A DNA stretch of 64,000 nucleotides, taken from the NCBI GenBank assembly GCA_965248435.1, contig OZ252100.1, positions 992,001 to 1,056,000 on the forward strand, in the 5' to 3' direction. The stretch comes from Candidatus Latescibacterota bacterium. GTDB taxonomy: Bacteria > Latescibacterota > UBA2968 > GCA-2709665. Both the position numbers and the translations under genes were made by a program. A model generated the notes under the pieces. It saw nothing but the letters and a program-made list of their open reading frames with translations. It did no database searches and was not told the DNA's origin. Shown piece by piece: positions 1 to 43,102 of the stretch. The stretch's first letter is position 1, and each line of letters starts with the position of its first letter.

Positions 1-628
1 GAAACCGCCTTGCAAGAATTTCAGTAAGGGAAACTTCCGAACTCAGTTCCCTCGGACATGCTTTGAAGTAGTACCCCCGTTTTTCTCCCGTCTTAATCTT
101 AAGAACAGCACTACGCTGCCAAAAACGCACCTGCTCAATCGAACTCACCGGCGTGGTGGAGCAGCCTGTGCGCTCCGAGACCCACTTGAGAACACGGGAA
201 AGCCATCCTGGTTGACACCACGGTTCGACTGGCGAAAATGACTTGCCGGCGCGCGCCTCCTCGAACCAGGTGGCTAAGACTGACTGTAGAATAAGAGGAT
301 AGACTTCAAGCCCTGAGAGCTGACTTTCATCTATCCACTGCCCGCTTCCTGGAGGAACGAAATTGCTGTCGTGATTCTCAAGGTTGTAAATCCGGATGTT
401 CTTTCCAATCACCGGCTCCTTCCAGTGAAAGGCGAATAGTATCGTTATTTGAGCCTCATATTCTCGCGAAAACGCACTACCGAAATAGCTGGGGTCCGTC
501 ATGGCATCCACACCATCCGGGGCTTGCCAGGTAAATGAGGGTAGCGTCCATCTGGCGTCCGCAGAGGGAACCATCCAGACCTTCGGTGGATTGGGACAAG
601 ACAAGATGTACAGAGCGCTACATTCCAC
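1..628 (-). CDS. Aminoglycoside phosphotransferase-like protein, 3' end off the window
   Basis: Manual translation from GTG 628 is open to position 1: MECSALYIL...EPWCQPGWL...EQVRFWQRSAVLKIKTGEKRGYYFKACP...EVSLTEILARRF. Absent from the ORF track because no stop lies in the window. Confidence 0.6.
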   Translation of the reverse strand, partial: MECSALYILSCPNPPKVWMVPSADARWTLPSFTWQAPDGVDAMTDPSYFGSAFSREYEAQITILFAFHWKEPVIGKNIRIYNLENHDSNFVPPGSGQWIDESQLSGLEVYPLILQSVLATWFEEARAGKSFSPVEPWCQPGWLSRVLKWVSERTGCSTTPVSSIEQVRFWQRSAVLKIKTGEKRGYYFKACPRELSSEVSLTEILARRF

Positions 629-738
629 GTTGGTATCGCCTCATCTCGGGTTCTTCCAATGCATTTCCTATAACGTTCTCGCGGGCTGCGAACCTGCCGA
701 GCTGGCACGGCGGAGGCCGAAAGCCCGTGCAACCCAGG

Positions 739-1701
739 CTAGAAGCGCGTGGCAAACCGATCGGTAGCGGAGACTAAGGCTTCAATCATTCCAGGATCTC
801 CGGAAGAGTGGCCAGCTCCACCTACGATTACAAGCTCAGCATCTGGCCAAGCCTGATCTAGTTCCCAAGCTGTAGCGAGGGGTCCCTGCAGATCAAGACG
901 TCCGTGCACCATGATGCCAGGTATACCCGCTAAAGCCCCAGCTTCTCGCAATAAGATTCCATCTTCCAACCAAGCATGGTGAGTGAAGTAATGAGTCACA
1001 ATACGGGCAAATGCCAATTGGAATTTGGGCTCTAATCGTCGCGGTCCGGGCTGGGCCTTTGAATCAACCGAAAGAAGCGAGTTCTCCCACTCACACCAAT
1101 CCCTTGCTGCCTTCATATGAATGGCAGGATCAGGATCTTGTAAAAGGCGACAGTAGGCTTCCACAAGGTTGCCCTCTCTATCGGCCTCGGGAACCCCCAG
1201 ACGGAAACGCTGCCAGCGGTCCGGAAAGAAGAGAGCAACACCATGGTAAAGCCAATCGATCTCTGACCTTCTTGTCGTAGTTACGGCTGTTAGGATGAGT
1301 TCAGTCACTCGATCTGGATTTCTCTCAGCGTAAGCAAGGGCCAACGTCGAGCCCCAAGATCCACCAAATACAAGCCACTTCTCTATACTAAGTTCCTTCC
1401 GAAGATGCTCAATATCTCCAAGGAGGTGATTGGTGGTGTTGACTGAAAGGTCTACAAGCGGGTCACTCGCGTGTGGCGTACTGCGACCACAGCCTCGCTG
1501 GTCGAACAGGATAATCCGGTATGCACGGGGATCAAAGAAACGGCGCATACCGGTCGAACATCCAGAACCTGGACCACCGTGGAGAACGATAGCTGGTTTG
1601 CCGCCTGGGTTGCCACAAACCTCCCAGTACGAGCAGTTGCCGTCGCCGACATCTAACATGCCACAATCGTATGGTTCAATCTCTGGATATAGTAGTTCCA
1701 T
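739..1701 (-). CDS. pip: Prolyl aminopeptidase (peptidase S33)
   Basis: HGGPGSG, DQRGCGRS, GGSWGS nucleophile and GAGHS motifs. Confidence 0.95.
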   Translation of the reverse strand: MELLYPEIEPYDCGMLDVGDGNCSYWEVCGNPGGKPAIVLHGGPGSGCSTGMRRFFDPRAYRIILFDQRGCGRSTPHASDPLVDLSVNTTNHLLGDIEHLRKELSIEKWLVFGGSWGSTLALAYAERNPDRVTELILTAVTTTRRSEIDWLYHGVALFFPDRWQRFRLGVPEADREGNLVEAYCRLLQDPDPAIHMKAARDWCEWENSLLSVDSKAQPGPRRLEPKFQLAFARIVTHYFTHHAWLEDGILLREAGALAGIPGIMVHGRLDLQGPLATAWELDQAWPDAELVIVGGAGHSSGDPGMIEALVSATDRFATRF

Positions 1702-1703
1702 CT

Positions 1704-2504
1704 TTACTTAACACAGATAAGCATCTTGTAATGAAAAATGAATTTCCAGGAAGTCGTTCCCAATACATCCCGAGCAGTCTCTTCTAGGTCTGGAATTCCA
1801 ATATCCTCTTCTGAAATCCCATTAGAAAGTGCCCGAGAAATTCCGCCAAATGTTCGCACCAAGCCCAAGAATGAATCTGCAGTGCCATCCTCTTCCTGAT
1901 GGAAGAATGCCTCCTTCACATATCTGTACCACCCGGCCTCTTCGATAACTGGCAACTGTTCCCGATAGGGCCATAAGCGGAAACCGGGCAATAGCTCTCG
2001 CTCACGAATCAATCGTTGTGCTGAACGAGCAACATTCTGATACGCTAATTCTACTTCAATGGGCATCGTCGGAGGCAAATCGTACCCGTATGCCAGTAGA
2101 ATCCCGCCAGGCTTCAGGATACGGACGATCTCAGGATGAGCCTTTTCAGGTGTCATCCAATGGAGCGATTGGCCACACGCGACCACATCAACACTTTCGT
2201 CTTCAAGGCCTGTCTCTTCTCCACTTCCTTCGCGGATCTGAACATCGGAGGACCCCTGCCCCCGCAAAGCGATCTCGCGCATTTCCGAATTGGGCTCTAT
2301 ACCGATAATCGATCGCGCCCTCCCGATCCAGACACCCGTCGACAGCCCGGTACCACATCCAAGGTCAACCACCGTCTGTATCTGTGTTTGCCCTAGAAGC
2401 CGGTCCGCAATCTCGGTAACTATCGCAGGAGCTTCTTGGCGATATTTGTGGTATGCCTCAACATCGTGGGCAAATCCAGGGCGTATCGATGAGCTCACTT
2501 TCAT
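1704..2504 (-). CDS. Class I SAM-dependent methyltransferase
   Basis: VDLGCGTG, GQSLHW, LKPGG. Confidence 0.9.
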   Translation of the reverse strand: MKVSSSIRPGFAHDVEAYHKYRQEAPAIVTEIADRLLGQTQIQTVVDLGCGTGLSTGVWIGRARSIIGIEPNSEMREIALRGQGSSDVQIREGSGEETGLEDESVDVVACGQSLHWMTPEKAHPEIVRILKPGGILLAYGYDLPPTMPIEVELAYQNVARSAQRLIRERELLPGFRLWPYREQLPVIEEAGWYRYVKEAFFHQEEDGTADSFLGLVRTFGGISRALSNGISEEDIGIPDLEETARDVLGTTSWKFIFHYKMLICVK

Positions 2505-2507
2505 TCC

Positions 2508-2960
2508 TCAGTCGAGTTGACGATAGGCTATAATCTCATCCCATCCATCGAACTCCATCTTCGCCTCAACTTTGAAACCTTGCTTCTCATAGAACTCTCG
2601 AGCATTTCCGTCCTCTGCAAGAAAGCCGACGCACAGTCTCTTCGCCGTCGGGAGACGCTCCTTTAATAGTTCGATGGCCAATTGCAGTGCTTCGCGAGCG
2701 TATCCCCTTCTCTGATGCGCCCGATCAATCATGAAACCCCAGAGATCCGGCTCCTCTCGATTCTGCTCCCACACTTTGACAAACCCAACCGGCTTATCAT
2801 CTGCGTAGATCACTTTGAACCAGGCGTCGTCCTCGTAGGTCCCGCGAGCGATCATGTGAGCAACCGTTGGCACAAAGCGCTCCTGCTCCGGTGAGACATG
2901 GAGATTCAGTACTTTCTGGATGTTCTTTTGTGTGACATCTCTGAGACTAATCGTGGGCAT
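2508..2960 (-). CDS. GNAT N-acetyltransferase (spermidine acetyltransferase-like)
   Basis: FMIDRAHQRRGYA acetyl-CoA motif; NAREFYEKQGF. Confidence 0.9.
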   Translation of the reverse strand: MPTISLRDVTQKNIQKVLNLHVSPEQERFVPTVAHMIARGTYEDDAWFKVIYADDKPVGFVKVWEQNREEPDLWGFMIDRAHQRRGYAREALQLAIELLKERLPTAKRLCVGFLAEDGNAREFYEKQGFKVEAKMEFDGWDEIIAYRQLD

Positions 2961-2989
2961 TAGGAGATACCGTTCAATCGAATGATCTC

Positions 2990-3412
2990 CTACAGTGGAG
3001 TAGCATTATCGGCTTCCGTAAGACTGACAATCTCGAATCTCGTATTCTCCGGGCCTCGAAAGAATACCGCATAGTAATCACCGCTATATTCAGGGCACTC
3101 TTCCGGACCATCTGTGATTTCGATGTTGCGGTCCCTAGCCCAGACTGCAAATCTTTCTACTTCGTCGCGGCTCCGGGCGGTGAAGGCAATGTGTTGCAGA
3201 GCACCTGGGGGTGAGCCTGATTCGGCCTTTCTCAAATAGATACGCGAACCTCTACCCTTCCAACCTGCAATGGCTTCGTGTGTTCTCTCTTTGGTCATAC
3301 ACAGGAATTCAACCAACAGATCGTCAAAGAATTGCTCGGCCTTTTCTGGCTCCTGGAGCCCCAAACCTATGTGGTGAATTACTGAATTGATCATTTGATT
3401 CCCTCTTGTCAC
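2990..3412 (-). CDS. VOC/glyoxalase family protein
   Basis: IHHIGL, HIAF, YYAVFFRGPEN.RFEIV; true start may be ATG 3394. Confidence 0.85.
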   Translation of the reverse strand: MTRGNQMINSVIHHIGLGLQEPEKAEQFFDDLLVEFLCMTKERTHEAIAGWKGRGSRIYLRKAESGSPPGALQHIAFTARSRDEVERFAVWARDRNIEITDGPEECPEYSGDYYAVFFRGPENTRFEIVSLTEADNATPL

Positions 3413-4101
3413 CCGGTCTCGGGATGCACATTAGTGCCTTCGGAGAGTCCTTCAGCATGAAGGTGAGCGGAGTCATTCAATCTCTCAATAGCGCGTTCAC
3501 TCCACTCATTGACCCTCAGCACAGTAATGCTTGCCGGCGATGCCTCGAAATAGATCTTGAAGAGTGCAGAGGGACTTGAAAGTAACTCCAGGTCAAAGCC
3601 AAGCCACCACCAGAGAATCGCTTGGATGGTCCCACCGTGTGTAATCAAGAGCAGAGGGTTTTCCTGGTCCTTAGTGAGAAAGGCAATGCAATCGGCAACC
3701 CTTGAGTGAAATTCTCGCCACGTTTCTGCCTGGGGATATTGTTCCCAATCAAGAAGTGGGTGTGTTCGCTCCAAAGCGTATGCTTTCGCCTCCTCCACCG
3801 ATTTCCCTGCAGCAACCCCATTATTCCATTCCCTCAATTTGGGTTCCTGATGAAGCTCAAGTCCGAGCCCGTTGCCGACTATCTGTGCAGTCTGGAATGC
3901 CCGTTTCAGGTCACTGCAATAGATCTGGAAAGGTATGTCGCCTAATTCCTCCTTAAGCCTTGATGCTAGAGCTACAGCCTGACGTTGACCCAATTCGGTT
4001 AGATCAGTATCGGTCCAGCCGCTTGTTAGCCCTTCTACTTGATATTTCGATTGCCCATGTCGAATCAGCACAATGGACTTCATAGGCCTGTTCTCTTGCA
4101 C
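3409..4101 (-). CDS. Histidine phosphatase (phosphoglycerate mutase) family protein
   Basis: LIRHGQS, SDLKRA, THGG. Confidence 0.92.
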   Translation of the reverse strand: MQENRPMKSIVLIRHGQSKYQVEGLTSGWTDTDLTELGQRQAVALASRLKEELGDIPFQIYCSDLKRAFQTAQIVGNGLGLELHQEPKLREWNNGVAAGKSVEEAKAYALERTHPLLDWEQYPQAETWREFHSRVADCIAFLTKDQENPLLLITHGGTIQAILWWWLGFDLELLSSPSALFKIYFEASPASITVLRVNEWSERAIERLNDSAHLHAEGLSEGTNVHPETG

Positions 4102-4170
4102 ATCAATTCGACTACCCGCGTAGTCGTGAACGATGTTGGTAACCTAGACTAGCCGCGATAAATTCTTGGA

Positions 4171-5157
4171 TCACGGATCTTCAAATAAAACACTGATGCT
4201 CTCCCGATTATGAATTCGGCTGATTGCCTCACCCAGCAACGGGGCAACTGAAGTGATTTCAATCTTGCTCCCCAAGGGTTCCGGATGGGATTCAACACTA
4301 TCGGTGACCAGCAGGTTGACAATCGGACTCCGCTGAATTCGCTCCATTGCTCCCCTTGAAAAAACGCCGTGAGACACCACAGCATATACTGCCAACGCTC
4401 CTCGATCCATGAGCTTTTCCGCCACATCGCATAACGTGCCACTTGAGATCGTGAAATCATCCACAACAAGCGCTGTTCTTCCAGACACATCGCCTATGAT
4501 CTCCAAAACTTCAGCCTGCTCATCGTGGCTGACCCGTTCTTTGTCAGCGATAACCAGCGAGCAGCGTAAGGCAGTTGCATATTGGCGGGCCTTCTTCGCA
4601 AATCCTGCGTCCGGGGACACGACAACCAGGTTATCCAGGCCCTTCGTCCGAATCGCCTGACACAATACAGGTAACGCGTATAAATCGTCCACCGGTACGC
4701 GAAAGAAACCCTGTATCTGCGGCGCATGAAGGTCTATGGTAACGACTCTGTCCGCGCCAGCTGCTTCCATAGCATCGGCGCATACTCGTGCCCTTATGGA
4801 TACGCGTGGTTCATCCTTCTTGTCACCCTTCGCATAGCTGAAATAGGGGACAATGGCTGTAACCGACGCAGCGCTGGCGCGTTTGAAGGCATCTAGCCAG
4901 AACAGCAGCTCCATAAAATTATCGTTGGCAGGGAACGCTGTTGATTGCACCACGTAGACATGCCGTCCTCGGACATTCTCTTGCACTCGGACAAACAAGT
5001 TCCCTTCTGAAAACCGAATCATTTCGCTACGGCCCCTTGAAACCCCGAGGCAGTCACAAATCTTGTCTGTCAAGTGGAGGCTCGCACTGCCGCCAAAGAT
5101 CATCATATCCTGTATGCTCATAGCGAGACTCCCGGATTTTGTCTTGGCCCAGCCCAC
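4171..5157 (-). CDS. prs: Ribose-phosphate pyrophosphokinase
   Basis: PYFSYAKGDKK, DLHAPQIQGFF, VSPDAG, VDDFTISSGTL. Confidence 0.93.
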   Translation of the reverse strand: MGWAKTKSGSLAMSIQDMMIFGGSASLHLTDKICDCLGVSRGRSEMIRFSEGNLFVRVQENVRGRHVYVVQSTAFPANDNFMELLFWLDAFKRASAASVTAIVPYFSYAKGDKKDEPRVSIRARVCADAMEAAGADRVVTIDLHAPQIQGFFRVPVDDLYALPVLCQAIRTKGLDNLVVVSPDAGFAKKARQYATALRCSLVIADKERVSHDEQAEVLEIIGDVSGRTALVVDDFTISSGTLCDVAEKLMDRGALAVYAVVSHGVFSRGAMERIQRSPIVNLLVTDSVESHPEPLGSKIEITSVAPLLGEAISRIHNRESISVLFEDP

Positions 5158-5166
5158 GATGTATCG

Positions 5167-5754
5167 TTATGACTCGGATGGTTCGCAGATTAGTCGTTTA
5201 AGACCATCGCCCTCATTGGGGCCTAAATCTTTTTCAAGTTCTCGGGCATATCGCAATTCGTGAAGATCGAATCCCTTTCTCTCTTCAACCTTGGTTGCCC
5301 CGTCGACCACAAATCCCATCTTCTCATAGAAAGCCCTGGCCCTCTCGTTCTCCTTGAGTACCCAAATCCTCACATCCTTGTACCCTTCCATCTCAAGTTC
5401 TTTCAACGCCCGGGTCATCAGCATCCAGCCCAGCCCGCGGTCCCAATAATCCTCCAGGAGGTAGATACCGTGAATTTCCCCTGTCGAACCATCGGAGAAT
5501 TCCTCGTCACGGGCCAACCCCTCCCCGGCAAACCCGATGATCTGTCCTTCTTCTTCAAGAATCAGGGTTCGCCACGACGTTTCTTGAAGGTTTTTAGTCC
5601 ACATCTTTACGTGCTTCGCCACCGATAGACCACTTAAAAAGCCGTCCGGAATGAGACCCTTGTAGGTAGACCGCCAAGATCTGACATGTACCTCTGCAAT
5701 GGCCTTGACATCAGCAGGTGTAGCCCATCGTAAAGTAGGTGAAGATTTCCCCAT
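5167..5754 (-). CDS. GNAT N-acetyltransferase
   Basis: IYLLEDYWDRGLG; VLKENERARAFYEKMGF. Confidence 0.9.
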   Translation of the reverse strand: MGKSSPTLRWATPADVKAIAEVHVRSWRSTYKGLIPDGFLSGLSVAKHVKMWTKNLQETSWRTLILEEEGQIIGFAGEGLARDEEFSDGSTGEIHGIYLLEDYWDRGLGWMLMTRALKELEMEGYKDVRIWVLKENERARAFYEKMGFVVDGATKVEERKGFDLHELRYARELEKDLGPNEGDGLKRLICEPSES

Positions 5755-5765
5755 TCGCCTTCATC

Positions 5766-6605
5766 TCAATCAGAATCTTCGCAGTGAAGCCATCTCAAGC
5801 CTCCAGGCCACCCTTTTTCTGACATTTCGAGAATCGACCTGCAATACCCGTTGATTCGACTCACTGCATAATCATACTGCTTACAGTCCCAAAAGAAATA
5901 GTTCGATATGGCTGCTCCGTTAAATTGTTCTCTCCTGGTATACGCTGGCAAACTGCCATCTTCCCTACGGTGCACTTCAATCAAATCAGGCTGGTTCATC
6001 AACTCCCACGTTGAAGCCCCTCTTCCGTCAACGTGGTGATAAATCGTCGCAGTTGAGGAATCTACTGCTCCCCAGATTCCATCTCGAAAGATTTCGATGA
6101 TCTGATGACCACTGTATGCTTGCTGCGTGTTGTATAACATGACTAATCGAGTTGGTAGGCCAGCAACCTGGCACATCACGCAAGCGACTCTTGCAACATC
6201 CGTGCACCAGTCGGAACCTCGGATGGTTATCTCCTCCTCCAACCCTCCAAATCGCATCTCATCCAGGCTTTCATCCTCAACTTCCTTGCCCAGTCCAGAA
6301 GTAAACTTCACAATCTTCTCGATCTTTTCCTCTGCCGTCTGACAGCCTGCGACGACTTCATCCGTTCGGCTTTCTAGCTCCGGCCGTTCCCCCTTTTCAT
6401 ACGATATGGATGTAGGTGAGTACTCTTCATACAGATAGGGGTCGATCTCCTGGCACAACCTGATCATTCTCTGTGTCAACACACGATCCACAGATCCAGG
6501 CGCGTGAGTATCATTCTTCATCATGACCTGGTAGGCACAGCCGAATTGTCCAATGCCCTGATACTTTGAGATATCTATTCCCATTGCAACTTCACGTCTC
6601 AGCAC
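5766..6605 (-). CDS. Transglutaminase-like domain protein
   Basis: Candidate Cys-His-Asp triad: WCTDVAR, GHQIIE, WGAVDS. Confidence 0.75.
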   Translation of the reverse strand: MLRREVAMGIDISKYQGIGQFGCAYQVMMKNDTHAPGSVDRVLTQRMIRLCQEIDPYLYEEYSPTSISYEKGERPELESRTDEVVAGCQTAEEKIEKIVKFTSGLGKEVEDESLDEMRFGGLEEEITIRGSDWCTDVARVACVMCQVAGLPTRLVMLYNTQQAYSGHQIIEIFRDGIWGAVDSSTATIYHHVDGRGASTWELMNQPDLIEVHRREDGSLPAYTRREQFNGAAISNYFFWDCKQYDYAVSRINGYCRSILEMSEKGWPGGLRWLHCEDSD

Positions 6606-7732
6606 AACGCTTGCTCTATGTCTTCAATCAGATCGTCGATATGTTCGACACCGACTGACAATCTCAACAGATTCTCGGTTATTCCTACTCTCTGACGCGC
6701 TTCAGGTGAGACTTCTTGGTGTGAGGTTGTCGCAGGATCACAAATGGTTGTTTCAAGCCCACCCAAGCTAAGGGCAGGTCGAATCAGTTTGAGTCTTCGC
6801 ATGAACTCCGTAGGATTGCCCGACTGCAATTCAATCGAAAGCATTGCGCCAAATCCCCCCATCTGCCCCTTGGCAATTTGATGACCCTGGTGATTCTCTA
6901 AACCCGGATAATTGACGAGGCAGATTGCTGAATGATTTTCCAGATGCTTCGCCACTTTCATCGCGTTATCTGTCTGCCTTTCTACTCTGAGGCATAGGGT
7001 CTTTAAGCTGCGTTCAAGTGTGTAGCATGACAGGGCATTGAGACTACCCCCCAAGCTAGATGCCGACTTCCGAATCAGATCAGCTTGCTCCCCTGTCGCC
7101 AAGATCACACCACAACAAAGGTCACTGTGTCCGCTGAGATATTTCGTGCCACTATGGATTACGATATCAATCCCAAGACGGAATGGATTCTGATTGATAG
7201 GTGTAGCAAAGGTATTGTCGATCATCGTGACAATTTTTCGGCTTTTGGCAAACATTGCTACTTTTTCAATGTCAACGACTGTTAATAACGGATTCGTTGG
7301 GCTTTCTATGTAAATGACTTTTGTCTCAGGTCGTACAGCATCAATGATTGCTTGGGCTTGGGCTGGTGCAAAAGTTGAGTCAATGCCATGTCGAGGGAAA
7401 TGATTAGAGACGAATGAATGTGACCCGCCATAAACTTCATCTTGAATGACCGCATGATCACCCGATTTCAAAAACGTAAGTAGCGCCGTTGATATAGCAG
7501 CCATTCCGGAACTGAACAAGACACCATCCTCGGTGGACTCCAAATCGCACAACTTTTTGACCACTGCCTCTTGATTAGGCGTGTTAAAGTATCGTGGATA
7601 TGGACGCACATCCGTATCAAGATATTCGTATGCTGAAGAGGTGAAGATGGGAGTATTGACCCCCCTTGTACCTTCGTCAAAATATCCACCCGAGTGAACA
7701 CACATTGTTTCGGATCTCATAGTCTTCCCCAT
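6599..7732 (-). CDS. Cys/Met metabolism PLP-dependent enzyme (cystathionine lyase/synthase family)
   Basis: FSSGMAAI, ESPTNP, DNTFATP, HSGTKYLSGHSD, RLSVGVE. Confidence 0.93.
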   Translation of the reverse strand: MGKTMRSETMCVHSGGYFDEGTRGVNTPIFTSSAYEYLDTDVRPYPRYFNTPNQEAVVKKLCDLESTEDGVLFSSGMAAISTALLTFLKSGDHAVIQDEVYGGSHSFVSNHFPRHGIDSTFAPAQAQAIIDAVRPETKVIYIESPTNPLLTVVDIEKVAMFAKSRKIVTMIDNTFATPINQNPFRLGIDIVIHSGTKYLSGHSDLCCGVILATGEQADLIRKSASSLGGSLNALSCYTLERSLKTLCLRVERQTDNAMKVAKHLENHSAICLVNYPGLENHQGHQIAKGQMGGFGAMLSIELQSGNPTEFMRRLKLIRPALSLGGLETTICDPATTSHQEVSPEARQRVGITENLLRLSVGVEHIDDLIEDIEQALC

Positions 7733-7900
7733 TAAAGAGAGTACCTCACCAAGGCATCCGTTCTGGTGTTACCAAACTCAGAACAGCGCTTCTCCCAGCG
7801 CTTCCGGACTGTGAAAATCGATTGAGCCACTTCCATTCTAGGTTACTCCTCCGTAGCACCTCTGATTTCCACTATAGGATTCCCTCTATCATCTCAGCTA

Positions 7901-8686
7901 TCATGCAATCAGCCCTCCATCTACGACCATGGCGTGTCCGGTAACGAAGGAGGCTTTCTCTGAGCAGAGCCATACGACTGCTTCGGCAACCTCGTCGGGA
8001 GTCCCTACTCTACCACTTGGCTCTTTCTGAATGTTTTGTTCTTCTAGCTTCACTCTTGCTTCTGGATTTCCGCCTGAAATGACATCGCCTAATCGCTCAT
8101 ACATCGGCGTACGAATTGTTCCTGGGCAAACCGCGTTGACTCGAATGCCCGCCTGAGCACATTCCAGTGCCGCTGTCTTGGTCAGACCAATAACCCCATG
8201 CTTACTGGCAATGTATGCGGGCAAACCTAGGCCACTTCCTGCCAACCCCAGTGTCGAGGAGGTGTTTACGATGGCGCCACTGCCCTGCTCAAGCATTTGG
8301 TGGAGTTCATGCTTCATACACAGCCATACTCCTTTGAGATTTACCCCGATGACCTGATCCCAGTTCTCCTCAGTACATTTGTGAGTGCGGGCCTGAATGC
8401 CTTCGATTCCAGCGTTATTGTGTGCGCAGTCTAATCGACCAAAGTTGTGGATAGTCTGGTTAATCAGTGCTTCAATGTCAGTGGCTTTTGTAACATCGGT
8501 TCGAAAGAAGAGAGCTTCGGAATCGGTTCTCTCGATCATGCGTGCTGTTTCTTCTCCACCTTCAGTGTCTATATCACCAATGATTACCCTTGCTCCCTCC
8601 CTGGCAAATGCTAGAGCCGATGCTCTTCCCATTCCAGAGCTTCCTCCGGTTACGAGCGCAACCTTGTCCACCAGGCACCCCGGCAT
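7901..8686 (-). CDS. Short-chain dehydrogenase/reductase
   Basis: TGGSSGMG, NNAG, YIASK. Confidence 0.95.
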   Translation of the reverse strand: MPGCLVDKVALVTGGSSGMGRASALAFAREGARVIIGDIDTEGGEETARMIERTDSEALFFRTDVTKATDIEALINQTIHNFGRLDCAHNNAGIEGIQARTHKCTEENWDQVIGVNLKGVWLCMKHELHQMLEQGSGAIVNTSSTLGLAGSGLGLPAYIASKHGVIGLTKTAALECAQAGIRVNAVCPGTIRTPMYERLGDVISGGNPEARVKLEEQNIQKEPSGRVGTPDEVAEAVVWLCSEKASFVTGHAMVVDGGLIA

Positions 8687-8697
8687 CTAGGTCTCTC

Positions 8698-9441
8698 TCA
8701 GGGTATTTTGAATACGAACAGGTCTACGGGCTCGAGGATCGGCCCGTCGGGCTGGGAATCCTCATCTCTTGCCATCGCCTCCAGTCCTTCTTCGAACTCT
8801 GAATCAGTGATGCTCGCCAGATCCGACAGAGCCCGTTGAGCAAGTTTTTCTCTGTACTCGTTGAATGATCCTGCGAATACCTGATTAATCACTGTGTGGT
8901 CAACTAGACTAAATCCATTCGCTTGAATGGTCCCGATAAGCTCCGATTTTCCAGGCAGCATTTTCTTTCCCACACGTCGGGCACTTGGAAAATACTTCAG
9001 ATACGGCACGCGATCATGCAGATCCAGGGTTGAGTTCCGGATACATAGCTTGCCACCTGCTCTGAGCACCCGGAACCACTCACGCGTCGCTTCGATCGGC
9101 TCAGTGAGGTGATGGAACACCATTGAGAGAAAGACTAAGTCAGATGAATCGTCTCTGATGGGGACAGCGTGAGTGTCTCCTCTGATAAATCTCACATTAT
9201 TTCCATCCGATCTGGCTTGGCTAAGCATTCTAAAGGAGGGATCGATCCCAATGAGCCTTGCGTTGAACCTTTCGGCAAGGGCATCAGAGAAGCGTCCTGT
9301 CCCACATCCAACATCTACAATACGCCTGACTGGTCCCACGATCAGATCTGCAATCGCATCCAGCCAGATCCTCAGTGTGGCTTCGGGGAGCTGCCTCGCC
9401 TTTACATAGGTGGCAGGTATGTCAGTGCGGTCGTATTCCAA
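8698..9441 (-). CDS. Class I SAM-dependent methyltransferase
   Basis: VDVGCGTG, MVFHHL, RVLRAGG. Confidence 0.9.
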   Translation of the reverse strand: MEYDRTDIPATYVKARQLPEATLRIWLDAIADLIVGPVRRIVDVGCGTGRFSDALAERFNARLIGIDPSFRMLSQARSDGNNVRFIRGDTHAVPIRDDSSDLVFLSMVFHHLTEPIEATREWFRVLRAGGKLCIRNSTLDLHDRVPYLKYFPSARRVGKKMLPGKSELIGTIQANGFSLVDHTVINQVFAGSFNEYREKLAQRALSDLASITDSEFEEGLEAMARDEDSQPDGPILEPVDLFVFKIP

Positions 9442-10138
9442 CGTTTGACTCAGGGTTCGCTTTGATATTCACGCAGATGTGATCGAAACTCAAGAAGATC
9501 CCTCTCAAAGCAATCTCCATAAGATCGTTTCTTCGCGTCCAGCATTGCGAGGCACGATCGTAGAAAGCGTAGTCGTCGGCATTCAACTCTCGAAATCTCT
9601 CAACTATCGACTCAGGAATCTTCGGAGATTGATAATCCCCAACATTCTCTCTGCTGTAGTAGAGATGTGGCCATTGGAACTGGTGATCCAATAGGACCAG
9701 AGACTCGTCAAACTGTTCTGTGACACCCACAAAGTCGTATCGCTCCATGGGACGCTTATCAAACCACTGTTTGAACCGGTTCTGACCGTACCCGGGAGGA
9801 TCTGGCCACCTAGGTGGTTCTGTGTTCGTCAGGAATACTCCGAGCCCTCGGTCAGTGAATCGTGCGCCAGGGTATCTCTTGGCAAAGAAATACATAGAAA
9901 TTGCTGAGCTGAGTGGTTCTCTCAAGAAGGTGATCCACTTCACCTTCCGGTGTGCGTTTATGGTGTCAGAAAAGTATTTAAAGACCCCGTGCCCGTGAAT
10001 GCACATAGGATTCTGAACTATGGGCCACTCTTCACTCTCGTCGTATGCCATCTGCAAGCGGTCCCCGAACCTCTGCTTGAGAAGCTGGCGGAATGTTATA
10101 CCGCCTGTCTTGGGAATATGCAGGCTTACATATAGCAA
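9422..10138 (-). CDS. Sulfotransferase family protein, probable frameshift near the 3' end
   Basis: LHIPKTGG PAPS motif, FLREP..S.Y, FVGVTEQFDESL, NADDYAFYD; an alternative frame from ~9547 reads AMLDAKKRSYGDCFERDLLEFRSHLREYQSEP*. Confidence 0.8.
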   Translation of the reverse strand: MLYVSLHIPKTGGITFRQLLKQRFGDRLQMAYDESEEWPIVQNPMCIHGHGVFKYFSDTINAHRKVKWITFLREPLSSAISMYFFAKRYPGARFTDRGLGVFLTNTEPPRWPDPPGYGQNRFKQWFDKRPMERYDFVGVTEQFDESLVLLDHQFQWPHLYYSRENVGDYQSPKIPESIVERFRELNADDYAFYDRASQCWTRRNDLMEIALRGIFLSFDHICVNIKANPESNVGIRPH

Positions 10139-10223
10139 TCTTCTCTCCCTGTCTCCTCGCTTCCTCTCCTCCGAGCCTCGCGTATGATGTAAGTAGGTGC
10201 CACAGACGTTTCCCCGGATCGAG

Positions 10224-10568
10224 CTATTTCGCCGCTAACGCGACAATTTCGATCAACGTATCTCCCTCCAGTTTCACTTCGACGCAAGCCCGTTGTGGCC
10301 AGTTGTCCTGCCCGATCCAAGGGTCCCATATCTCGTTGACAATAGGTTTCTTCTCAATGTCTGTGATGTAGATGGTTACGGAGACCAACCGGGTTTTGTC
10401 CGTGCCTGCTTCTGCTAGGTTAGTATCTAACTGCGCAAGCGCCTGCTCGGTCTGGCTCCTCAGATCTCCTGAAAAATCCGTTGCAATTACAGCCGTGTAG
10501 ATCAATCCATTGTGCTCGACGGATTCGCTTCGGCCAACGGCCTTGCCAGTATACCGCTTGATTGACAT
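10224..10568 (-). CDS. RidA/YjgF family protein
   Basis: QTEQALAQLD, NEIWDPW, PQRACVE, IEIVALA. Confidence 0.9.
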   Translation of the reverse strand: MSIKRYTGKAVGRSESVEHNGLIYTAVIATDFSGDLRSQTEQALAQLDTNLAEAGTDKTRLVSVTIYITDIEKKPIVNEIWDPWIGQDNWPQRACVEVKLEGDTLIEIVALAAK

Positions 10569-10618
10569 GCTCTATTCCTTATGTCGGAATCTGCTTATGC
10601 TCCCCAAGTCACATCCGA

Positions 10619-11389
10619 TCACCGCTCTTTCGTAGCGACTAAGAGAAATTCCCCTGGAAGCGACCTCGCTTCGTCTAGTTTCTCACCGAATCGCCAGGTG
10701 TCGTGGCTTGGATATTCTGAGAGGTGATTTATATGTAAACCCGAGGCCACCAAAGCAGTAATGATGTCACCGAGCGGCCAACTGAACTGATATTTCGTCT
10801 CCCGAGCGTCCTCCCCGCCTTCGAAATGCCTCCAGCCCGATCCCACGATAGGCTCCTTCCGACTGAAATAGTCGTCCTCCATGATCAATACTCCATCCTT
10901 CACAGAAAGACACGCAGCAACTGGGTGTCCCTCCAACAGAAGAAGGCGTCCACCCACACCCAATGCTGACGAGATATTCGTCGCCCAGACCTCAATATCT
11001 GGAATCCATACCAGAGAACCGCCTCCAGTATGGATGATGTCAAACCCCACTCCAGTAATATCCGCAGGCAGACAGCAAACATCCGCGACATGGAATGATA
11101 CGGGGATGCCGGCCTCCTCAGCCTTGTTTCGAGCGAGACTGATCTGTCGAGGACTTATGTCGACTCCCGTTGCAATTGCACCAAGGACGGCCCAGGAAAT
11201 TGCCTCTTCACCCGTGGAACACTGACATTGCAGCACAGTCTTTCCTGTAATCTCTCCGGCTGCCTCGATAAGGAGCGGACTCAACGTTGTGTTACCTGAA
11301 GCATAGTAGCCTGCCGGTTTGGTCCGTTTATGGCGAACTTCGGCAATCTCGTCCCATGCCCTAGCATTCTGCGATGTAAACTCTCGCAC
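10619..11389 (-). CDS. Class I SAM-dependent methyltransferase
   Basis: LQCQCSTGEE, GVDIS, GSLVWIPD, EGHP. Confidence 0.85.
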   Translation of the reverse strand: MREFTSQNARAWDEIAEVRHKRTKPAGYYASGNTTLSPLLIEAAGEITGKTVLQCQCSTGEEAISWAVLGAIATGVDISPRQISLARNKAEEAGIPVSFHVADVCCLPADITGVGFDIIHTGGGSLVWIPDIEVWATNISSALGVGGRLLLLEGHPVAACLSVKDGVLIMEDDYFSRKEPIVGSGWRHFEGGEDARETKYQFSWPLGDIITALVASGLHINHLSEYPSHDTWRFGEKLDEARSLPGEFLLVATKER

Positions 11390-11413
11390 AACTATACCCT
11401 CTTTCCATCACTC

Positions 11414-11962
11414 CTAGTCTTGCCACTCGCTTCTTAGAAGACCATACAGATGCATGTCGTGCCTCTCTCCGTCGCGTTCCATGAATTGTCTGAACGTGCC
11501 CTCTCTCTTAAAATTCATCTTCTCATACAAAGCAATTGCTCGGTCGTTGAAATCAAATACCGTTAACTGAAGTTTGATGAGATTGAGTTCTTTGATGGCA
11601 TAGTCGATAAGAAGCTCGGTGGCTTCCGTGCCGTATCCTTTTCCCCAGTCATCTGGATTCCCAATCCCAATGCCCAACCAGGCGACGCGATTCGGCCACT
11701 CGATCTCAGCTAGGGAAACAGTGCCGATGATCTCCTCTTGATCCAAAAGTCGAATAGCGAACACCAGTTCACGCTCTGTCTTTCCCAACCCGTCAATCCA
11801 TTCCTTGATCTGAGTCTCCGTTCGCTCCGTGATAGGATCGGAGCCCCAAAGCCTCAGGAATCGAGTGTCCTCCCGCCATTTGAGAATGGTTGAGACATCT
11901 TCCAATCTAAGCAGAGTCAAACGTATTAGGTTTCCGGCTAAAAGGTTTGTGGGATGATCCAT
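11414..11962 (-). CDS. GNAT N-acetyltransferase, RimJ/RimL type
   Basis: WGKGYGTEA, NDRAIALYEK, REGTFR; start moved to ATG 11962, which follows AGGAG. Confidence 0.9.
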   Translation of the reverse strand: MDHPTNLLAGNLIRLTLLRLEDVSTILKWREDTRFLRLWGSDPITERTETQIKEWIDGLGKTERELVFAIRLLDQEEIIGTVSLAEIEWPNRVAWLGIGIGNPDDWGKGYGTEATELLIDYAIKELNLIKLQLTVFDFNDRAIALYEKMNFKREGTFRQFMERDGERHDMHLYGLLRSEWQD

Positions 11963-12065
11963 GGTAGACTCCTGGTGAGGAGGTAGTGAAGGGCTTGGAG
12001 GATTCCTCTGCGACCTGTATGCCATTTTGACCGAGCCGTAAGACCGCAGCAATGCTATTGCTCAA

Positions 12066-12461
12066 TCATAATCCATAATGCATTGGCACCCTGGTGGCAG
12101 ACACCTCAAACCCACACTTCTTGTAAAATTCGACTGGACCTTCGGCAAGGAGCAGCTGCTGGAAGAAACCCTGGTAATTGGAGATGAGCTTCCGCATGAT
12201 CAGACTTCCAATCCCTTTTCCTTGATAGTCCGGCAACACCAGGAGGTGGGGGTAGTATACGACGAGTGATCCATCCGATATAGCATTACCGAGTCCAACC
12301 AGGGTATCTCCATCCCATGCCGTGACCAAGGAGTGTGAGTTTATGAGACCATCGTGCAATTCATTGGGCTTCTTGGCAGAAGACCACTTGTTGGCCTCGT
12401 ATAGCGGTAGAATGTGCTCTTTCGAGATGTCTCGGGTCTCTCTGAGTCTGATTCCTTCCAT
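12066..12461 (-). CDS. GNAT N-acetyltransferase
   Basis: LLVLPDYQGKGIG; FYKKCGF. Confidence 0.9.
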   Translation of the reverse strand: MEGIRLRETRDISKEHILPLYEANKWSSAKKPNELHDGLINSHSLVTAWDGDTLVGLGNAISDGSLVVYYPHLLVLPDYQGKGIGSLIMRKLISNYQGFFQQLLLAEGPVEFYKKCGFEVSATRVPMHYGL

Positions 12462-12476
12462 GACTACCTCACGAGC

Positions 12477-12998
12477 CTAATGGAGATACTCGCTCCTCAA
12501 CATTCGATAGAATGGCCAGCCAGGCTTATATTCCCCGTCCTGTTTGAACCCAACTTTCTCCAGAACTCTAATCGAAGCAACATTTCGTGAATGGACCCAC
12601 GTTTCAACCGACGGCAAATCCAATGTCTTGAAGCCATAGTTGACAGCTGCTGCAGCTAGCTCCGTAGCGAGCCCGCGGCCACAATAGCTAGGATGAATGA
12701 TGTAGATCAGCTCGTTCTTAGGTTCCTCGTCACGAGAATCCCGGGTTAGTCCACCCCATCCCACAACCATTGAGGTTTGTCTCAAGACAGCGACCCAGGG
12801 TGAGAACCCCTCAGGTTCAAGCAAAGACGCATGGTTTTCTAACCAAGCTTGTGTCTCCGCAAGAGACAGGGGTCTCTCTGGACCGATATACTTCATCGAT
12901 TCAGGATCTGAAAACGTGGAATAAAGAGCTTCATCATCCGAATCGATAGGATCTCTTAGGGTCAGTTGCTCAGTTTGGATAAGTTTCTGCATGGTCAT
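12477..12998 (-). CDS. GNAT N-acetyltransferase, RimJ/RimL type
   Basis: YCGRGLATE; NVASIRVLEKVGF. Confidence 0.9.
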   Translation of the reverse strand: MTMQKLIQTEQLTLRDPIDSDDEALYSTFSDPESMKYIGPERPLSLAETQAWLENHASLLEPEGFSPWVAVLRQTSMVVGWGGLTRDSRDEEPKNELIYIIHPSYCGRGLATELAAAAVNYGFKTLDLPSVETWVHSRNVASIRVLEKVGFKQDGEYKPGWPFYRMLRSEYLH

Positions 12999-13008
12999 AA
13001 CCAGCTTT

Positions 13009-13752
13009 TCAGTTCTTCCTCGCGGTAACTACCAATCTACTTCCTTCTCTCCCATACTCCCTGCCATCGAAACCCCCATACAGCTTAATCTCTTTAAATC
13101 CCACCTGCCCAAGACGGTCTTTCATCTCCTGCCCAGAATACACGGCAGTTGAAAACTTGAAACTGTGGGTTTGGCCATCCTTTATCACGATCCACTCGTT
13201 CCGAATCCGAGTCCAATCTTTAATCACCTCATGACGTTGAATCCAAAGGGTGCCATCTTCTAGTTCAGTTGAGCTTGTTGGCTGAAACACTTTGGCCAAC
13301 CACTCTTTGCTAACTACGTCGATCACACAAGAACCATCCGCCCTCAGATTGCAGTAGATATTATCCAGAACTTTCAGATTCTCCTCTTCCTTGTCAAAAT
13401 ATCCAAACGAGGTGAACAGGTTCAATACCAGGTCATAACTGTCCTCGCGGACAAACCTCCGCATGTCTTCCAAGATCCATTCAACCTGCACTTTCTCAGC
13501 AACCGCCCTTTCGCGTGCTTTTTCCAATAGATACGGCGTGAGGTCTACTGCTGTTACGTCCAGCCCTCTATGGGCTAACACCACAGAGTGCCTCCCCGGG
13601 CCGCAGCAGAGGTCTAGAACAGAATGACCTTCGAAATTCACCAGTTTCAGAACCTTCTCGACCTGTTCTTCTGCCTGTGCAAATCTCTTGCTTGGAAACA
13701 TGAGCGGATACATCGTAATCCAAAAAGATTCATCTTCAAACCAGTCAGTCAT
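13009..13752 (-). CDS. Class I SAM-dependent methyltransferase
   Basis: VLDLCCGPGRH; NLFTSFGYF. Confidence 0.92.
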   Translation of the reverse strand: MTDWFEDESFWITMYPLMFPSKRFAQAEEQVEKVLKLVNFEGHSVLDLCCGPGRHSVVLAHRGLDVTAVDLTPYLLEKARERAVAEKVQVEWILEDMRRFVREDSYDLVLNLFTSFGYFDKEEENLKVLDNIYCNLRADGSCVIDVVSKEWLAKVFQPTSSTELEDGTLWIQRHEVIKDWTRIRNEWIVIKDGQTHSFKFSTAVYSGQEMKDRLGQVGFKEIKLYGGFDGREYGREGSRLVVTARKN

Positions 13753-13767
13753 GTTAATCTCCGCAAG

Positions 13768-14307
13768 TCAAAGCTGATCGTTCAGGGGCGCCTGAATCAA
13801 CCGCGACATCTCGTACTCAAACAAGGCGCAATCGTTTGGGTACGGCTCTGTGCGTCCAGTCTTTTTGAATCCGATTCGCTCATAGAAATCGATAGCTGAG
13901 TTGTTGTTGCAAGTCACCATCAGCAGCAAAATGTGAACTTTCCGTGCACGTGCCCAGTTCAGAACACCATCGACCAACAAACGACCCACACCTAAGCGTC
14001 GCTGATCTGGTGCGACCCACATCGATACGAGATGCGCTCTCGTATTGTCTAGCTTGTCGAGAAATCCAGCGACGATCCCGCACGAGATGTCCCCGTCCAT
14101 AGCTAGATAGGTAGTTGAATTCGCACCATCCCTCTCTGCTGCATGTTTAATCCACTCGGGGTCGGTAAGCTGAGACTCCTTAGCATAGGTAGATCCGAAT
14201 GCTCCGGGCGAATCTTGCAAGGCTCGCAATCTTACATCCTTGAATGTCATGGCGTTCCGACGGGCGACCGCAACAAGCGTGACCATAGGCTGCCTTTCCG
14301 CTAACAT
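13768..14307 (-). CDS. GNAT N-acetyltransferase
   Basis: SMWVAPDQRRLGVG; AIDFYERIGF; true start may be ATG 14286. Confidence 0.9.
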   Translation of the reverse strand: MLAERQPMVTLVAVARRNAMTFKDVRLRALQDSPGAFGSTYAKESQLTDPEWIKHAAERDGANSTTYLAMDGDISCGIVAGFLDKLDNTRAHLVSMWVAPDQRRLGVGRLLVDGVLNWARARKVHILLLMVTCNNNSAIDFYERIGFKKTGRTEPYPNDCALFEYEMSRLIQAPLNDQL

Positions 14308-14376
14308 TCTTCGATTTGATTTGAGTGCTCATCCAACACATAGCTCCCATAGAGTTTCCCAACTCGAAACCGAATC

Positions 14377-14796
14377 CTACAAAAGTTTCCTGAAGTAGGT
14401 AGCGGACTCTTCATATCCGATTGCTTTATAGAAGTCTTCAGCTCTGCGTGTAGCCAATGCAATCAGCCTTGAGTCCCTTTCCTTAGCTTTTTGTTCAATC
14501 ATTACTACAAGCTCTCTGCCTATTCCTTGGCCTCGGAACTCATCCTCCACAAAAAGCTCCTCGATCCAGGTCACGATCCCATTCGCGAAAAAGGTCAGGT
14601 GGTGGAATGCGAGAACATACCCGACCGGTGAGCTGCCCCGTTCCGCTACTAGAAGGTCAGCGTTTGGATCTGCTAGAACATCTTCAATCGATTTGACGAA
14701 TGAACCTGTTCGTGTTTCGAAGCTTGAGGCGAACTTTCTAACCAAAACGAGCAGTAAGTCCCTGTCATCGCTCTGGGCTTCTCTAATACCAACCAT
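14377..14796 (-). CDS. GNAT N-acetyltransferase
   Basis: ELFVEDEFRGQGIG; FYKAIGY. Confidence 0.9.
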   Translation of the reverse strand: MVGIREAQSDDRDLLLVLVRKFASSFETRTGSFVKSIEDVLADPNADLLVAERGSSPVGYVLAFHHLTFFANGIVTWIEELFVEDEFRGQGIGRELVVMIEQKAKERDSRLIALATRRAEDFYKAIGYEESATYFRKLL

Positions 14797-14819
14797 TCTG
14801 ATTCCAACGTGAAAACGTG

Positions 14820-14861
14820 AAAAAGAAAAAACCCGCGGTCGAGAGGTCTCAACGGCGGGTC
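14820..14861 (-). terminator. Intrinsic terminator just upstream of the 21-gene array
   Basis: Minus strand ACCCGC-C-GTTGAG acct CTCGAC-C-GCGGGT followed by TTTTTCTTTT. Confidence 0.75.
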
Positions 14862-14889
14862 AGGTTCTGGCGCAAGGTGTCTTGCTCAA

Positions 14890-15028
14890 GGCCACAAATG
14901 ATCCCGCCGCTTCATCTTAAGGGAATGCCAGTTGATAGCGGCATGGGTTTCTACCTGCTTATTCGAACGGGCAGGTCCCTCAGTCAGTTCGATTGGGAAA
15001 CATGAAGGTCGGCGGGTGATCATTGGCT
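14890..15028. ncRNA. Unidentified structured RNA element (long closing stem plus three internal hairpins)
   Basis: AATGATC-CCGCCG-CTTCAT pairs with ATGAAG-CGGCGG-GATCATT; inner hairpins ATGCC/GGCAT, ACCTGC/GCAGGT, CTCAGTC/GATTGGG; no convincing ORF. Confidence 0.5.
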
Positions 15029-15206
15029 ATTTACCTATTACGATGATTAGAGATGTGCATCCAACTGATAAGAATATATAAACTGGCACCCGTTGGAGTC
15101 AAGATCTTTCTGTTTGTTGGTCACGAATGCTACTCTGACTCCGTGGCTTTCCTCCGGCGATTTAAGTGGCCGGGGTCTGCAGACGATTGCACACAAAAGA
15201 GGTTCA

Positions 15207-16577: not shown

Positions 16578-16750
16578 CTTAACCTCCACTATTCGTTGGA
16601 CGATTCGAATGCCCAATTAGAGACGGTTTCCTGCAGCGAGCAATCGTGTCCCGTGGTCAAACGGAAAGTTAAGGAGATTTAATGGAGTCTTAGTAAAGAA
16701 AAGGAACCCGCTGGTCGGAGGCAGCAGGGGAGGGGAAAGATCTTGGTCAA

Positions 16751-17710: not shown

Positions 17711-17755
17711 CTGCCAATTTCCTTGTAACATTCTGTTGCCATTAACCACTTGTCG

Positions 17756-40741: not shown

Positions 40742-40912
40742 AATCAGGTTTTTGTTCATCATTCCTCCCCCGCAAATTCCGTTCCGAAAACAAACAGGGG
40801 AAGATCCCCTTTTCCGAATTGGGATCTTCCCCTGTCGTTCCAAACCTCGGCAACAAGGTCTGAACAGGTCGTTCACTCAGTCAAGCAAAAGACGTTCAGA
40901 GATCACACTTCG

Positions 40913-43003: not shown

Positions 43004-43102
43004 GATTCGAATCCCCGGTCACTTCTCGAATGAGATTCCCCCGAATAGGGATTCCGGCTTATCGTTTTACAATTTAAGTGTGAATAACCGGATTGTCAAT
43101 TT

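Follow-up and report, generated by a model that had tools for sequence, protein, structure and literature searches.

The window analysed here, a stretch of 64,000 nucleotides (nt) of Candidatus Latescibacterota bacterium (contig OZ252100.1, positions 992,001 to 1,056,000), begins with 21 open reading frames (ORFs) in succession, running from 2..628 to 14377..14796, all on the minus strand and arranged head to tail behind a leader. A preliminary description of this DNA had seen in them a co-directional array of cassette-type genes, without an integrase and without the conserved attC sites that normally separate integron cassettes, and had left the choice between an eroded cassette array and another gene-capture mechanism that adds genes behind the leader. 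The genes are given below with their Pfam families; genes 2-21 (window 745-14796, 20 genes), which are free of attC, are referred to as the block.

1..628, minus: gene 1, running past the window edge (474 amino acids (aa), genome 991204-992628); without a family in Pfam or NCBIfam; first gene downstream of the attC remnant
739..1701, minus: gene 2, prolyl aminopeptidase-type alpha/beta hydrolase (TIGR01249, 352.8 bits against a cut-off of 259.75); last gene of the block
1704..2504, minus: gene 3, class I S-adenosylmethionine-dependent (SAM) methyltransferase
2508..2960, minus: gene 4, GNAT
2990..3412, minus: gene 5, VOC/glyoxalase fold; the true start is likely the ATG at 3394
3409..4101, minus: gene 6, histidine phosphatase (branch 1)
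4171..5157, minus: gene 7, ribose-phosphate diphosphokinase-like (also NCBIfam); a second copy, 43% identical, lies at 1.409 Mb
5167..5754, minus: gene 8, GNAT
5766..6605, minus: gene 9, transglutaminase-like
6599..7732, minus: gene 10, Cys/Met-metabolism pyridoxal phosphate (PLP) enzyme
7901..8686, minus: gene 11, SDR (also NCBIfam)
8698..9441, minus: gene 12, methyltransferase
9422..10138, minus: gene 13, weak sulfotransferase-like match below the cut-off
10224..10568, minus: gene 14, RidA family
10619..11389, minus: gene 15, methyltransferase
11414..12052, minus: gene 16, GNAT
12066..12461, minus: gene 17, GNAT
12477..12998, minus: gene 18, GNAT
13009..13752, minus: gene 19, methyltransferase
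13768..14307, minus: gene 20, GNAT
14377..14796, minus: gene 21, GNAT; first gene behind the leader

By Pfam, the 21 ORFs comprise seven GNATs, four class I methyltransferases, one VOC and one RidA protein, the remainder being an alpha/beta hydrolase, a histidine phosphatase, a Prs-like kinase, a transglutaminase-like protein, a Cys/Met PLP enzyme and an SDR; two have no secure family, one being weakly sulfotransferase-like and the other without any family. NCBIfam models are passed above cut-off by three ORFs (prolyl aminopeptidase, ribose-phosphate diphosphokinase and SDR). The paralogues are divergent: the closest GNAT pair is 29% identical over 83 aa (21 pairs compared) and the closest methyltransferase pair 30% over 163 aa (6 pairs compared). 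The seven divergent GNATs and four divergent methyltransferases of the preliminary description are thus borne out, with pairwise identity at most 30%, and so is its statement that the genes form no coherent pathway: the products of genes 2-21 are unrelated small-molecule-modifying enzymes.

The close spacing that had been described (mostly 0-30 bp) was also confirmed, with 14 of the 20 junctions at 30 nt or less and six at 50-168 nt. GGAG or GAGG stands upstream of the start codon at many junctions of the run. A promoter scan gave 19 hits against 17.9 in shuffles and a terminator scan 14 against 15.8, which gives no sign of internal signals in the block, and a scan of window 1-19500 for direct and inverted repeats returned short chance-like families only. 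The 21 genes belong to a longer same-strand run of 68 ORFs over 63 kb (genome 957439-1020746), the longest among 1488 runs in the genome as counted with a crude ORF caller (at least 80 aa), the runners-up holding 34 and 33 ORFs. Because this length is far above the genome mean of 3.3, replication strand bias does not explain the 68-ORF run.

attC sites, the leader and a second locus

The 110-nt gap between genes 2 and 1 (629-738) contains the 3' half of an attC-type repeat. Its core is found by nhmmer at E 6.5e-10, and the covariance model described below scores it at 17.2 bits (E 0.065), the match being window 668-744.

660..744, minus: eroded attC; the 3' half (L'-R', ...GGCAGGTTCGCAGCCCGCGAGAAC-GTTATAG) is retained and the 5' half (R''-L'') is gone

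The remnant fails to fold into the hairpin (z 0.17, against -4.36 in one intact copy), and window 661-727 recurs across the genomes of many relatives in a DNA search. The family to which it belongs has about 54 sites genome-wide, clustered at at least five places. A full copy reads, on the gene strand, RYYYAAC-ACGN-CGGGCTGCG, a variable middle, and CGCAGCCCG-CGAGAAC-GTTRRRY, and copies fall into two size classes of 85 nt and about 140 nt. When 18 copies are aligned, 93.5% of cells are paired in the hairpin, against at most 40.5% with the partners slid; the inner hairpin shows compensatory changes, and single-strand DNA folds agree with an imperfect hairpin. An imperfect hairpin with bulges and an unpaired spacer, closed by the inverse core and core boxes (RYYYAAC and GTTRRRY), is how integron attC sites are built, and the repeats share this anatomy. 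The covariance model, R2, was built from this genome's own family with the structure stated, and unrelated attC types would be missed by it; it replaced a first model, R1, which was dropped as its automatic consensus had missed the main stem.

With R2, the array that holds the window (locus A) has 19 attC sites between 946.8 and 992.7 kb, namely 18 at 946.8-989.8 kb plus window 668-744. All 19 sit on the gene strand (minus), as do all ORFs of the array; those nearest the remnant are at 989688, 988634 and 988011, spaced by less than 4 kb. The absence of conserved attC sites noted in the preliminary description therefore holds for window 745-14796 (20 genes, 0 sites) but not for the locus, which has half an attC at 629-738 and 18 further sites to the left of the window.

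Upstream of gene 21, the leader comprises three features:

15073..15102, minus: sigma-70-like promoter TTGACT-18-TATATT, 10/12 matches, conserved in the locus C copy
14826..15070, minus: structured leader RNA of about 245 nt; minimum free energy -84.1 kcal/mol, z -4.41; consensus fold with a long closing helix
14822..14859, minus: intrinsic terminator, hairpin CCCGCCGTTGAGACCTCTCGACCGCGGG followed by a T-run (14822-14831)

The 3' strand of the closing helix, CGGCGGG, has an alternative partner in the 5' strand of the terminator, CCCGCCG. The ATG of gene 21 (14796) lies 25 nt past the T-run, counted from the last T at 14822, or 33 nt when counted from the end of the match to the leader model R3 (window 14830). 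By either count, a transcript can reach the block only by passing the terminator. Rfam gave 0 matches over window 1-22000 at E up to 1, the RYYYAAC...GTTRRRY pair is absent at the leader/gene 21 junction, and an exact 21-mer of the leader had 0 matches in a metagenome collection. R3 retrieves weak relatives both in the present genome and in others, where they precede a luciferase-like monooxygenase, an ilvB-like enzyme, methyltransferases and a class II aminoacyl-tRNA synthetase; pair counts in its alignment are high, but the alignment was fitted to the model. We regard the leader as an attenuator or riboswitch-like element outside the classified families, and not as a recombination site. Members of the leader family lie at window 14826-15070 (minus), 2102344-2102543, 2316437-2316575 and 2108945-2109127 (loci L093-L096, L100); they have a nearly identical terminator (AACCCGCCGTTGAG...CTCGAC.GCGGGTT) and the long closing helix, and the genes downstream of them, which include GNAT and MOSC genes, are unrelated. 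None of the members has a match in Rfam.

The same layout is found at a second place in the genome, locus C (2.05-2.10 Mb), where a leader that has 86% identity with window 14821-15120 precedes first a 13-kb block free of attC and then an attC array, whose sites start at 2088.8 kb and continue downward. Similarity between the two leaders begins just before the promoter and ends at the T-run of the terminator; three paired positions are changed on one side with pairing kept, and zero on both sides. The locus C block has about 19 genes: six methyltransferases, four GNAT-type proteins including an AAC(3), VOC, RidA, SDR and transglutaminase-like proteins, and HAD, PhzF, MOSC, DUF5069 and FolD. 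The first gene behind the leader differs (GNAT in A, a MOSC protein in C), and the two blocks have the leader in common but just 4-5 of about 20 genes, at 56% to 97% aa identity. Genes 11 and 12 (SDR and methyltransferase) are 88% identical in DNA to 2094443-2096045, the gene 12 methyltransferase reaching 96.7% aa identity with its paralogue there; gene 14 (RidA) has 92% DNA identity with 2090694-2091098, and one methyltransferase pair is 56% identical in aa. Further down locus C, at 2068809-2069213, lies an 84%-identical paralogue of the gene 5 VOC protein with an intact attC on each side.

Upstream of each leader lies a gene with a thioredoxin/redoxin domain at its end (window 15207-16616; locus C, L059:14686-19130). 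That of locus C encodes a 1349-aa BlaR1-type M56 peptidase fusion, preceded by a BlaI-type repressor, while that of the window encodes 469 aa only, 24% identical over 261 aa to the locus C protein.

Cassette ends, attC loss and relatives

We compared locus A with three further arrays of the same genome, B at 1.44 Mb, C-distal at 2.06 Mb and D at 3.86 Mb. The first 17 nt of each cassette, counted from the TT of the preceding GTTRRRY, were matched to the reverse complement of the 5' edge of its own attC. In B, C-distal and D (31 cassettes) the mean match is 13.1/17, against 8.0 (standard deviation 1.8) in unrelated cassette pairs, which is what excision and insertion at G|TT produce. Thus, these three arrays, which lie outside the block, consist of true circularisable integron cassettes. 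The array downstream of the block in locus A is likewise made of true cassettes. In locus A the match is kept at 12-15/17 for attC pairs about 1 kb apart and lost (5-7/17) across intervals with several ORFs, and this failure indicates that attC sites formerly between those ORFs have been lost. Most cassettes in B, C-distal and D have the same mismatch near position 10 of the extended R-box stem, A at the cassette start against C at the attC edge, which could serve strand choice.

The regions differ in the number of attC sites per ORF, their median model score and the median gap between ORFs:

Array D: 1.06 attC per ORF; 60.2 bits; 205.5 nt
Array B: 0.86 attC per ORF; 83.7 bits; 104.5 nt
C-distal: 1.20 attC per ORF; 66.7 bits; 230 nt
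C-mid: 0.59 attC per ORF; 52.5 bits; 157.5 nt
A-distal (three sub-regions): 0.33-0.54 attC per ORF; 31.7-42.9 bits; 90-141 nt
A block: 0 attC per ORF; no model score; 14 nt
C block: 0 attC per ORF; no model score; 36 nt

GC content at third codon positions (GC3) is 0.525 in the block, where all 19 of the 19 genes scored lie below the 20th percentile of the genome; it is 0.54-0.57 in the arrays and 0.655 (standard deviation 0.088) over 4293 genome ORFs.

Among 40-41 related genomes examined, the 15.2 kb with the block finds scattered single-gene matches only (40 relatives). A control stretch of equal size, 40900-56100, is collinear at 74-80% in G001, a genome of the same genus, and at 67-73% in four family members. 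In G001 the two flanks of a region of 104 kb, 933064-1037435 (window to about 45435), come together within about 260 bp; the array, the neighbouring island and two histidine kinases make up one variable region. The gene order conserved in distant relatives that the preliminary description had named as evidence against gene capture was not observed, and order is not kept even within the genus. G001 has an array of its own, of about 24 attC sites alternating with single ORFs. A homologue of gene 8 (51% identical) is located in it, and the G001 homologue of gene 19 (58% identical) is a single-gene cassette with attC on both sides. A homologue of gene 12 on a metagenome contig (50% identical) is followed by an attC-like hairpin, CCTAAC...GTTAGG. 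The attC family is present in 21 of 41 related genomes (16/21 of the same family and 4/19 of the sister family).

A complete integron has, at the head of its array, an attI site beside an intI gene, whose product recombines attC sites as folded bottom strands. IntI, the integron integrase, is a tyrosine recombinase with an integron-specific insertion in its catalytic domain (described in the part of PMC8138268 used here). No ORF of the genome passes the integron-integrase model TIGR02249; the top matches reach 104 and 93 bits against a cut-off of 265 bits and skip model positions 177-236. No match lies between 933 and 1037 kb and none within 10 kb of either leader, which bears out the earlier statement that there is no integrase, as regards the window and, where an intact IntI is meant, the whole genome. 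A C-terminal intI fragment is present at 4954386-4954601 (L102:14386-14601): 72 residues, 50% identical to residues 254-325 of the IntI of G004, a relative with an intact integrase, and scoring 86.8 bits with TIGR02249. It is upstream of, and on the same strand as, five attC sites (L102:7924-12793), and the 4.95 Mb locus is a decayed integron whose intI and cassettes share one orientation. An intact IntI turned up in 2 of the 41 related genomes. The lineage once had integrases, and that of the present genome is lost or broken.

A cluster of attC sites lacking an integron-integrase is termed a CALIN by Cury et al. 2016 (PMC4889954; statements taken from this paper refer to the part of it used here). 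Since attC arrays are present and no IntI passes the cut-off, the arrays of this genome are CALINs in that sense. Locus A carries two attC sites or more, clustered on one strand, as the CALIN definition asks, while window 745-14796 alone has 0.

Origin of the attC-free block

Taken together, genes 2-21 are probably fused former cassettes, making up the promoter-proximal, attC-free 14-kb front of an integron-type array of about 60 kb (a CALIN-type relic) that is read from the promoter through a structured leader RNA with a terminator. The array as a whole is a CALIN or the relic of a sedentary chromosomal integron, with no integrase adjoining. Between the two origins considered in the preliminary description, the eroded cassette array is favoured because the block continues on the same strand into the attC array, has low GC3, contains genes with attC-flanked homologues, and stands at the end of a stepwise fall in attC density and quality, although no attC trace was found within the block.

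The block genes would once have been cassettes of the same pool as the adjoining array. Their attC sites would have been deleted, partly at the gene 2/gene 1 junction and, as the context suggests, wholly at the other 19, and the genes would have been welded into an operon-like unit with spacers of 2-30 nt and often with GGAG/GAGG-type ribosome-binding motifs. The unit would be transcribed from the promoter at 15073-15102 via the 245-nt leader RNA. Read-through would be controlled by the terminator, in the manner of an attenuator or a riboswitch-like switch; we propose this since the first ATG lies just 25 nt beyond the T-run. A likely driver would be selection on the expressed front of a frozen array against hairpins that hinder transcription and translation.

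Several results weigh against this interpretation. Firstly, R2 run with filters off and at E up to 10 over window 1-30000 (minus strand) found nothing besides 668-744, with 0 matches within 745-14796; 14 of the 20 gaps of the run are too short for any attC, and the RYYYAAC...GTTRRRY pair is absent from all six longer gaps of the block. As the block junctions carry no recognisable attC trace, the cassette origin of genes 2-21 is something we infer and do not see. Secondly, attC density, about 0.5 per ORF in the array, falls abruptly to zero at 744. The youngest cassettes of a working integron are those closest to the promoter, where the best attC sites are expected; the gradient observed is opposite to that predicted from insertion at attI. 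Thirdly, the gene 5 VOC protein and its cassette paralogue are similar within the ORF only, low GC3 is a mark of foreign or accessory DNA generally and not of cassettes in particular, and at nine loci in other genomes, where the Prs-like, RidA and SDR genes have relatives at the DNA level, attC of this family is absent from the vicinity. Finally, block and leader are absent at six array heads in five relatives and from the G001 array, and the layout may be a single lineage-specific event copied once, in which case the two blocks are not independent.

The block could instead be, as the main rival reading has it, an ordinary accessory operon or gene island of detoxifying enzymes, never made of cassettes, which lay upstream of a CALIN and was later duplicated as a whole unit to locus C. 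We consider this unlikely, yet it accounts for the 19 junctions without attC trace, for the abrupt change at 744, and for the Prs-like, RidA and SDR relatives that are not cassettes elsewhere. Operon-like spacers before the start codons and a leader with promoter and terminator are likewise typical of regulated operons, and the cassettes might, for example, have integrated at a secondary site at the 3' end of the block, secondary-site integration being among the origins of CALINs given by Cury et al. (PMC4889954). What it leaves unexplained is the content: seven GNATs and four methyltransferases of low pairwise identity that form no coherent pathway, a GC3 that fits cassettes and not the genome, and four block genes with cassette homologues. 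The A and C blocks, moreover, have the same leader and few genes in common, at widely differing identities (56%-97% aa), which indicates that the content of the block turned over gene by gene, and attC loss is directly visible in the adjoining array.

That genes were added singly behind the leader by a system other than an integron, through a serine recombinase or another enzyme, is very improbable. The similarity of the two leaders does stop exactly at the T-run, with different first genes behind it, and a serine recombinase or its remnant is found upstream of both. The serine recombinase that had been noted near the array is real (16751-17749). It is 332 aa long, while the CcrB model has about 540, matches that model in its N-terminal part only (84 bits against a 900-bit cut-off), and adjoins about 23 kb (window 17800-40530) of ORFs without a Pfam family, which is probably an integrated element or a defence island. 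The enzyme, at the edge of that stretch, has the look of a separate island's integrase and is probably unrelated to the array; the remnant at locus C is a C-terminal piece of 147 aa that retains residues 195-325 only. No repeat or site is common to the block junctions, the cassettes of the genome have integron-type ends with the G|TT signature, the leader reads as a promoter/RNA/terminator module, and two loci that are possibly duplicates provide no independent support. The second origin proposed in the preliminary description thus found no backing. Within the 23-kb stretch, exceptions to the lack of families are a protein with an AbiJ N-terminal domain (35310-36185) and, at the far boundary, a RadC-like UPF0758 gene (40039-40530).

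Least probable of all is the reverse direction, in which the blocks are nurseries where expressed genes gain attC to become cassettes: block genes are homologous to attC-flanked cassettes and attC is very homogeneous within the genome, which is discussed as a possible sign of local cassette creation (PMC4889954), but the ORFs scanned in loci A, B and C included neither a reverse transcriptase nor a group II intron, and both the remnant at 660-744, with half of its attC deleted, and the failure of edge matches in locus A point to loss and not gain.

The eroded-array interpretation makes the stretch a variant of known things, CALINs and fused cassettes, and not a new capture system. Very long co-directional arrays with homogeneous attC sites at tens of copies are found in sedentary chromosomal integrons, for instance the Vibrio superintegron and its VCR repeats. 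The present array resembles them in its length and single direction, its homogeneous attC sites and its small, diverse, acetyltransferase-rich cargo, but this genome is without an intact integrase or recognisable attI, and attC sites in locus A number well under one per gene. Sequences of attI are not conserved, with none known from this lineage. Locus A resembles a CALIN in having two or more attC sites on one strand without intI nearby, cargo that is mostly unknown or non-clinical enzymes, insertion sequence (IS) elements in and around the arrays, and a genome size (5.7 Mb) within the range where CALINs peak (PMC4889954). It is unlike a typical one in its 19 attC sites, as 83% of CALINs carry fewer than six (PMC4889954), and in that the first 14 kb behind the promoter has none. 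Fused cassettes in class 1 integrons arise by partial or total loss of attC and are rare and little known (PMC4670013, in the part used here); the gene 2/gene 1 junction is a partial attC loss of that kind, whereas the present genome would hold two such fusions, each of up to 20 consecutive genes. The leader has in common with riboswitch and attenuator leaders a promoter, a 5' region with a long helix, a 3' strand that could switch between helix and terminator, and a coding sequence right after the T-run, but it lacks an Rfam match, and the genes downstream of its weak relatives are mutually unrelated.

The fate of cassettes after integrase loss, and their conversion into chromosomal genes, are poorly documented. 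This one genome offers a graded series, from arrays with about one attC per gene through half-lost arrays to two attC-free blocks of 13-14 kb, so that decay and domestication are open to direct study. Because the front 14 kb has no attC, an attC-based finder would leave out the 20 block genes, which is the part of such arrays predicted to be most highly expressed. The findings also add, to the range of large cassette arrays, a candidate phylum for which metagenomes are almost the sole source; no paper on integrons of Latescibacterota was found, judged from titles and the beginnings of abstracts.

Mobile elements and cargo of the arrays

An element of 2.5 kb, encoding a tyrosine recombinase (314 aa, Xer/IntI-like) and an IS91-family Y2 transposase, is present in six copies that are 97.8-99.7% identical (1447154-1449662, i.e. 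L056:11154-13662; 2070466-2072959; 3849836-3852351; 4651270-4653777; 4841930-4844438; 5171408-5173892). It lies outside the window, yet it bears on cassette movement in a genome without IntI. Its end reads ...CTTAATCG|TTA (...AATCG|TTA), and in five of the six copies a whole cassette is joined to it exactly at G|TT. These cassettes all differ, and their first 17 nt pair with the 5' edge of the next attC at 10, 15, 15, 14 and 15 of 17 positions. G004 has three copies of an element 63% identical to this one, two of them immediately downstream of intI genes. The element either targets integron att sites or has an end that serves as a mobile attI. No paper on an element combining IS91, a tyrosine recombinase and attC was found in the literature listings, and 'IS91' does not occur in PMC8138268.

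The 314-aa tyrosine recombinase was considered as the missing integrase, or as a member of a recombinase-in-trio, and was rejected: its partner is by Pfam an IS91-family Y2 transposase, and the homologous element of G004 carries its own recombinase beside a separate intI. At 4650323-4650835 lies a second broken tyrosine recombinase, in two pieces with an internal TAA and 24% identical to the G004 IntI; it is directly upstream of one copy of the IS91-type element, mirroring the order of intI and then element in G004.

A more far-reaching combination of these elements is that the expressed front of the array was actively stripped of its attC hairpins and welded into an operon under a riboswitch-like leader, twice in the genome, the cassettes becoming fixed, co-regulated genes and so, in this lineage, doing more than decay after loss of the canonical integrase. 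Cassettes may at the same time still be moved by a non-canonical platform, the end of the IS91-type element then acting as a mobile attI. As a joint claim this is doubtful, and we put it forward as speculation.

Further mobile elements are found within the arrays. An IS110-family transposase (DEDD_Tnp_IS110 and Transposase_20) occurs at L056:8413-9504 (plus strand), 2066415-2067506 and 3860707-3861798, the copies being 98-99.7% identical; all three sit within cassette arrays, on the strand opposite to them, with 14 nt between the end of one copy and an attC. We take them to be reminiscent of the IS1111-attC group. Two IS30-like genes (HTH_38 and rve), 99.4% identical, lie within arrays A and C (951676-952659 and 2073903-2074880).

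The cassette cargo includes resistance-type families, namely a class C-type beta-lactamase fold, three APH-family kinases and an AAC(3) (Antibiotic_NAT, 313.8 bits), as well as an 866-aa PPDK_N protein and many HIT, HAD, NUDIX and GFA proteins. The resistance-type and PPDK_N genes are at L066:7135-8319, 8996-9940, 10589-13189 and 17177-18178, L059:11076-11897 and L058:5153-5935.

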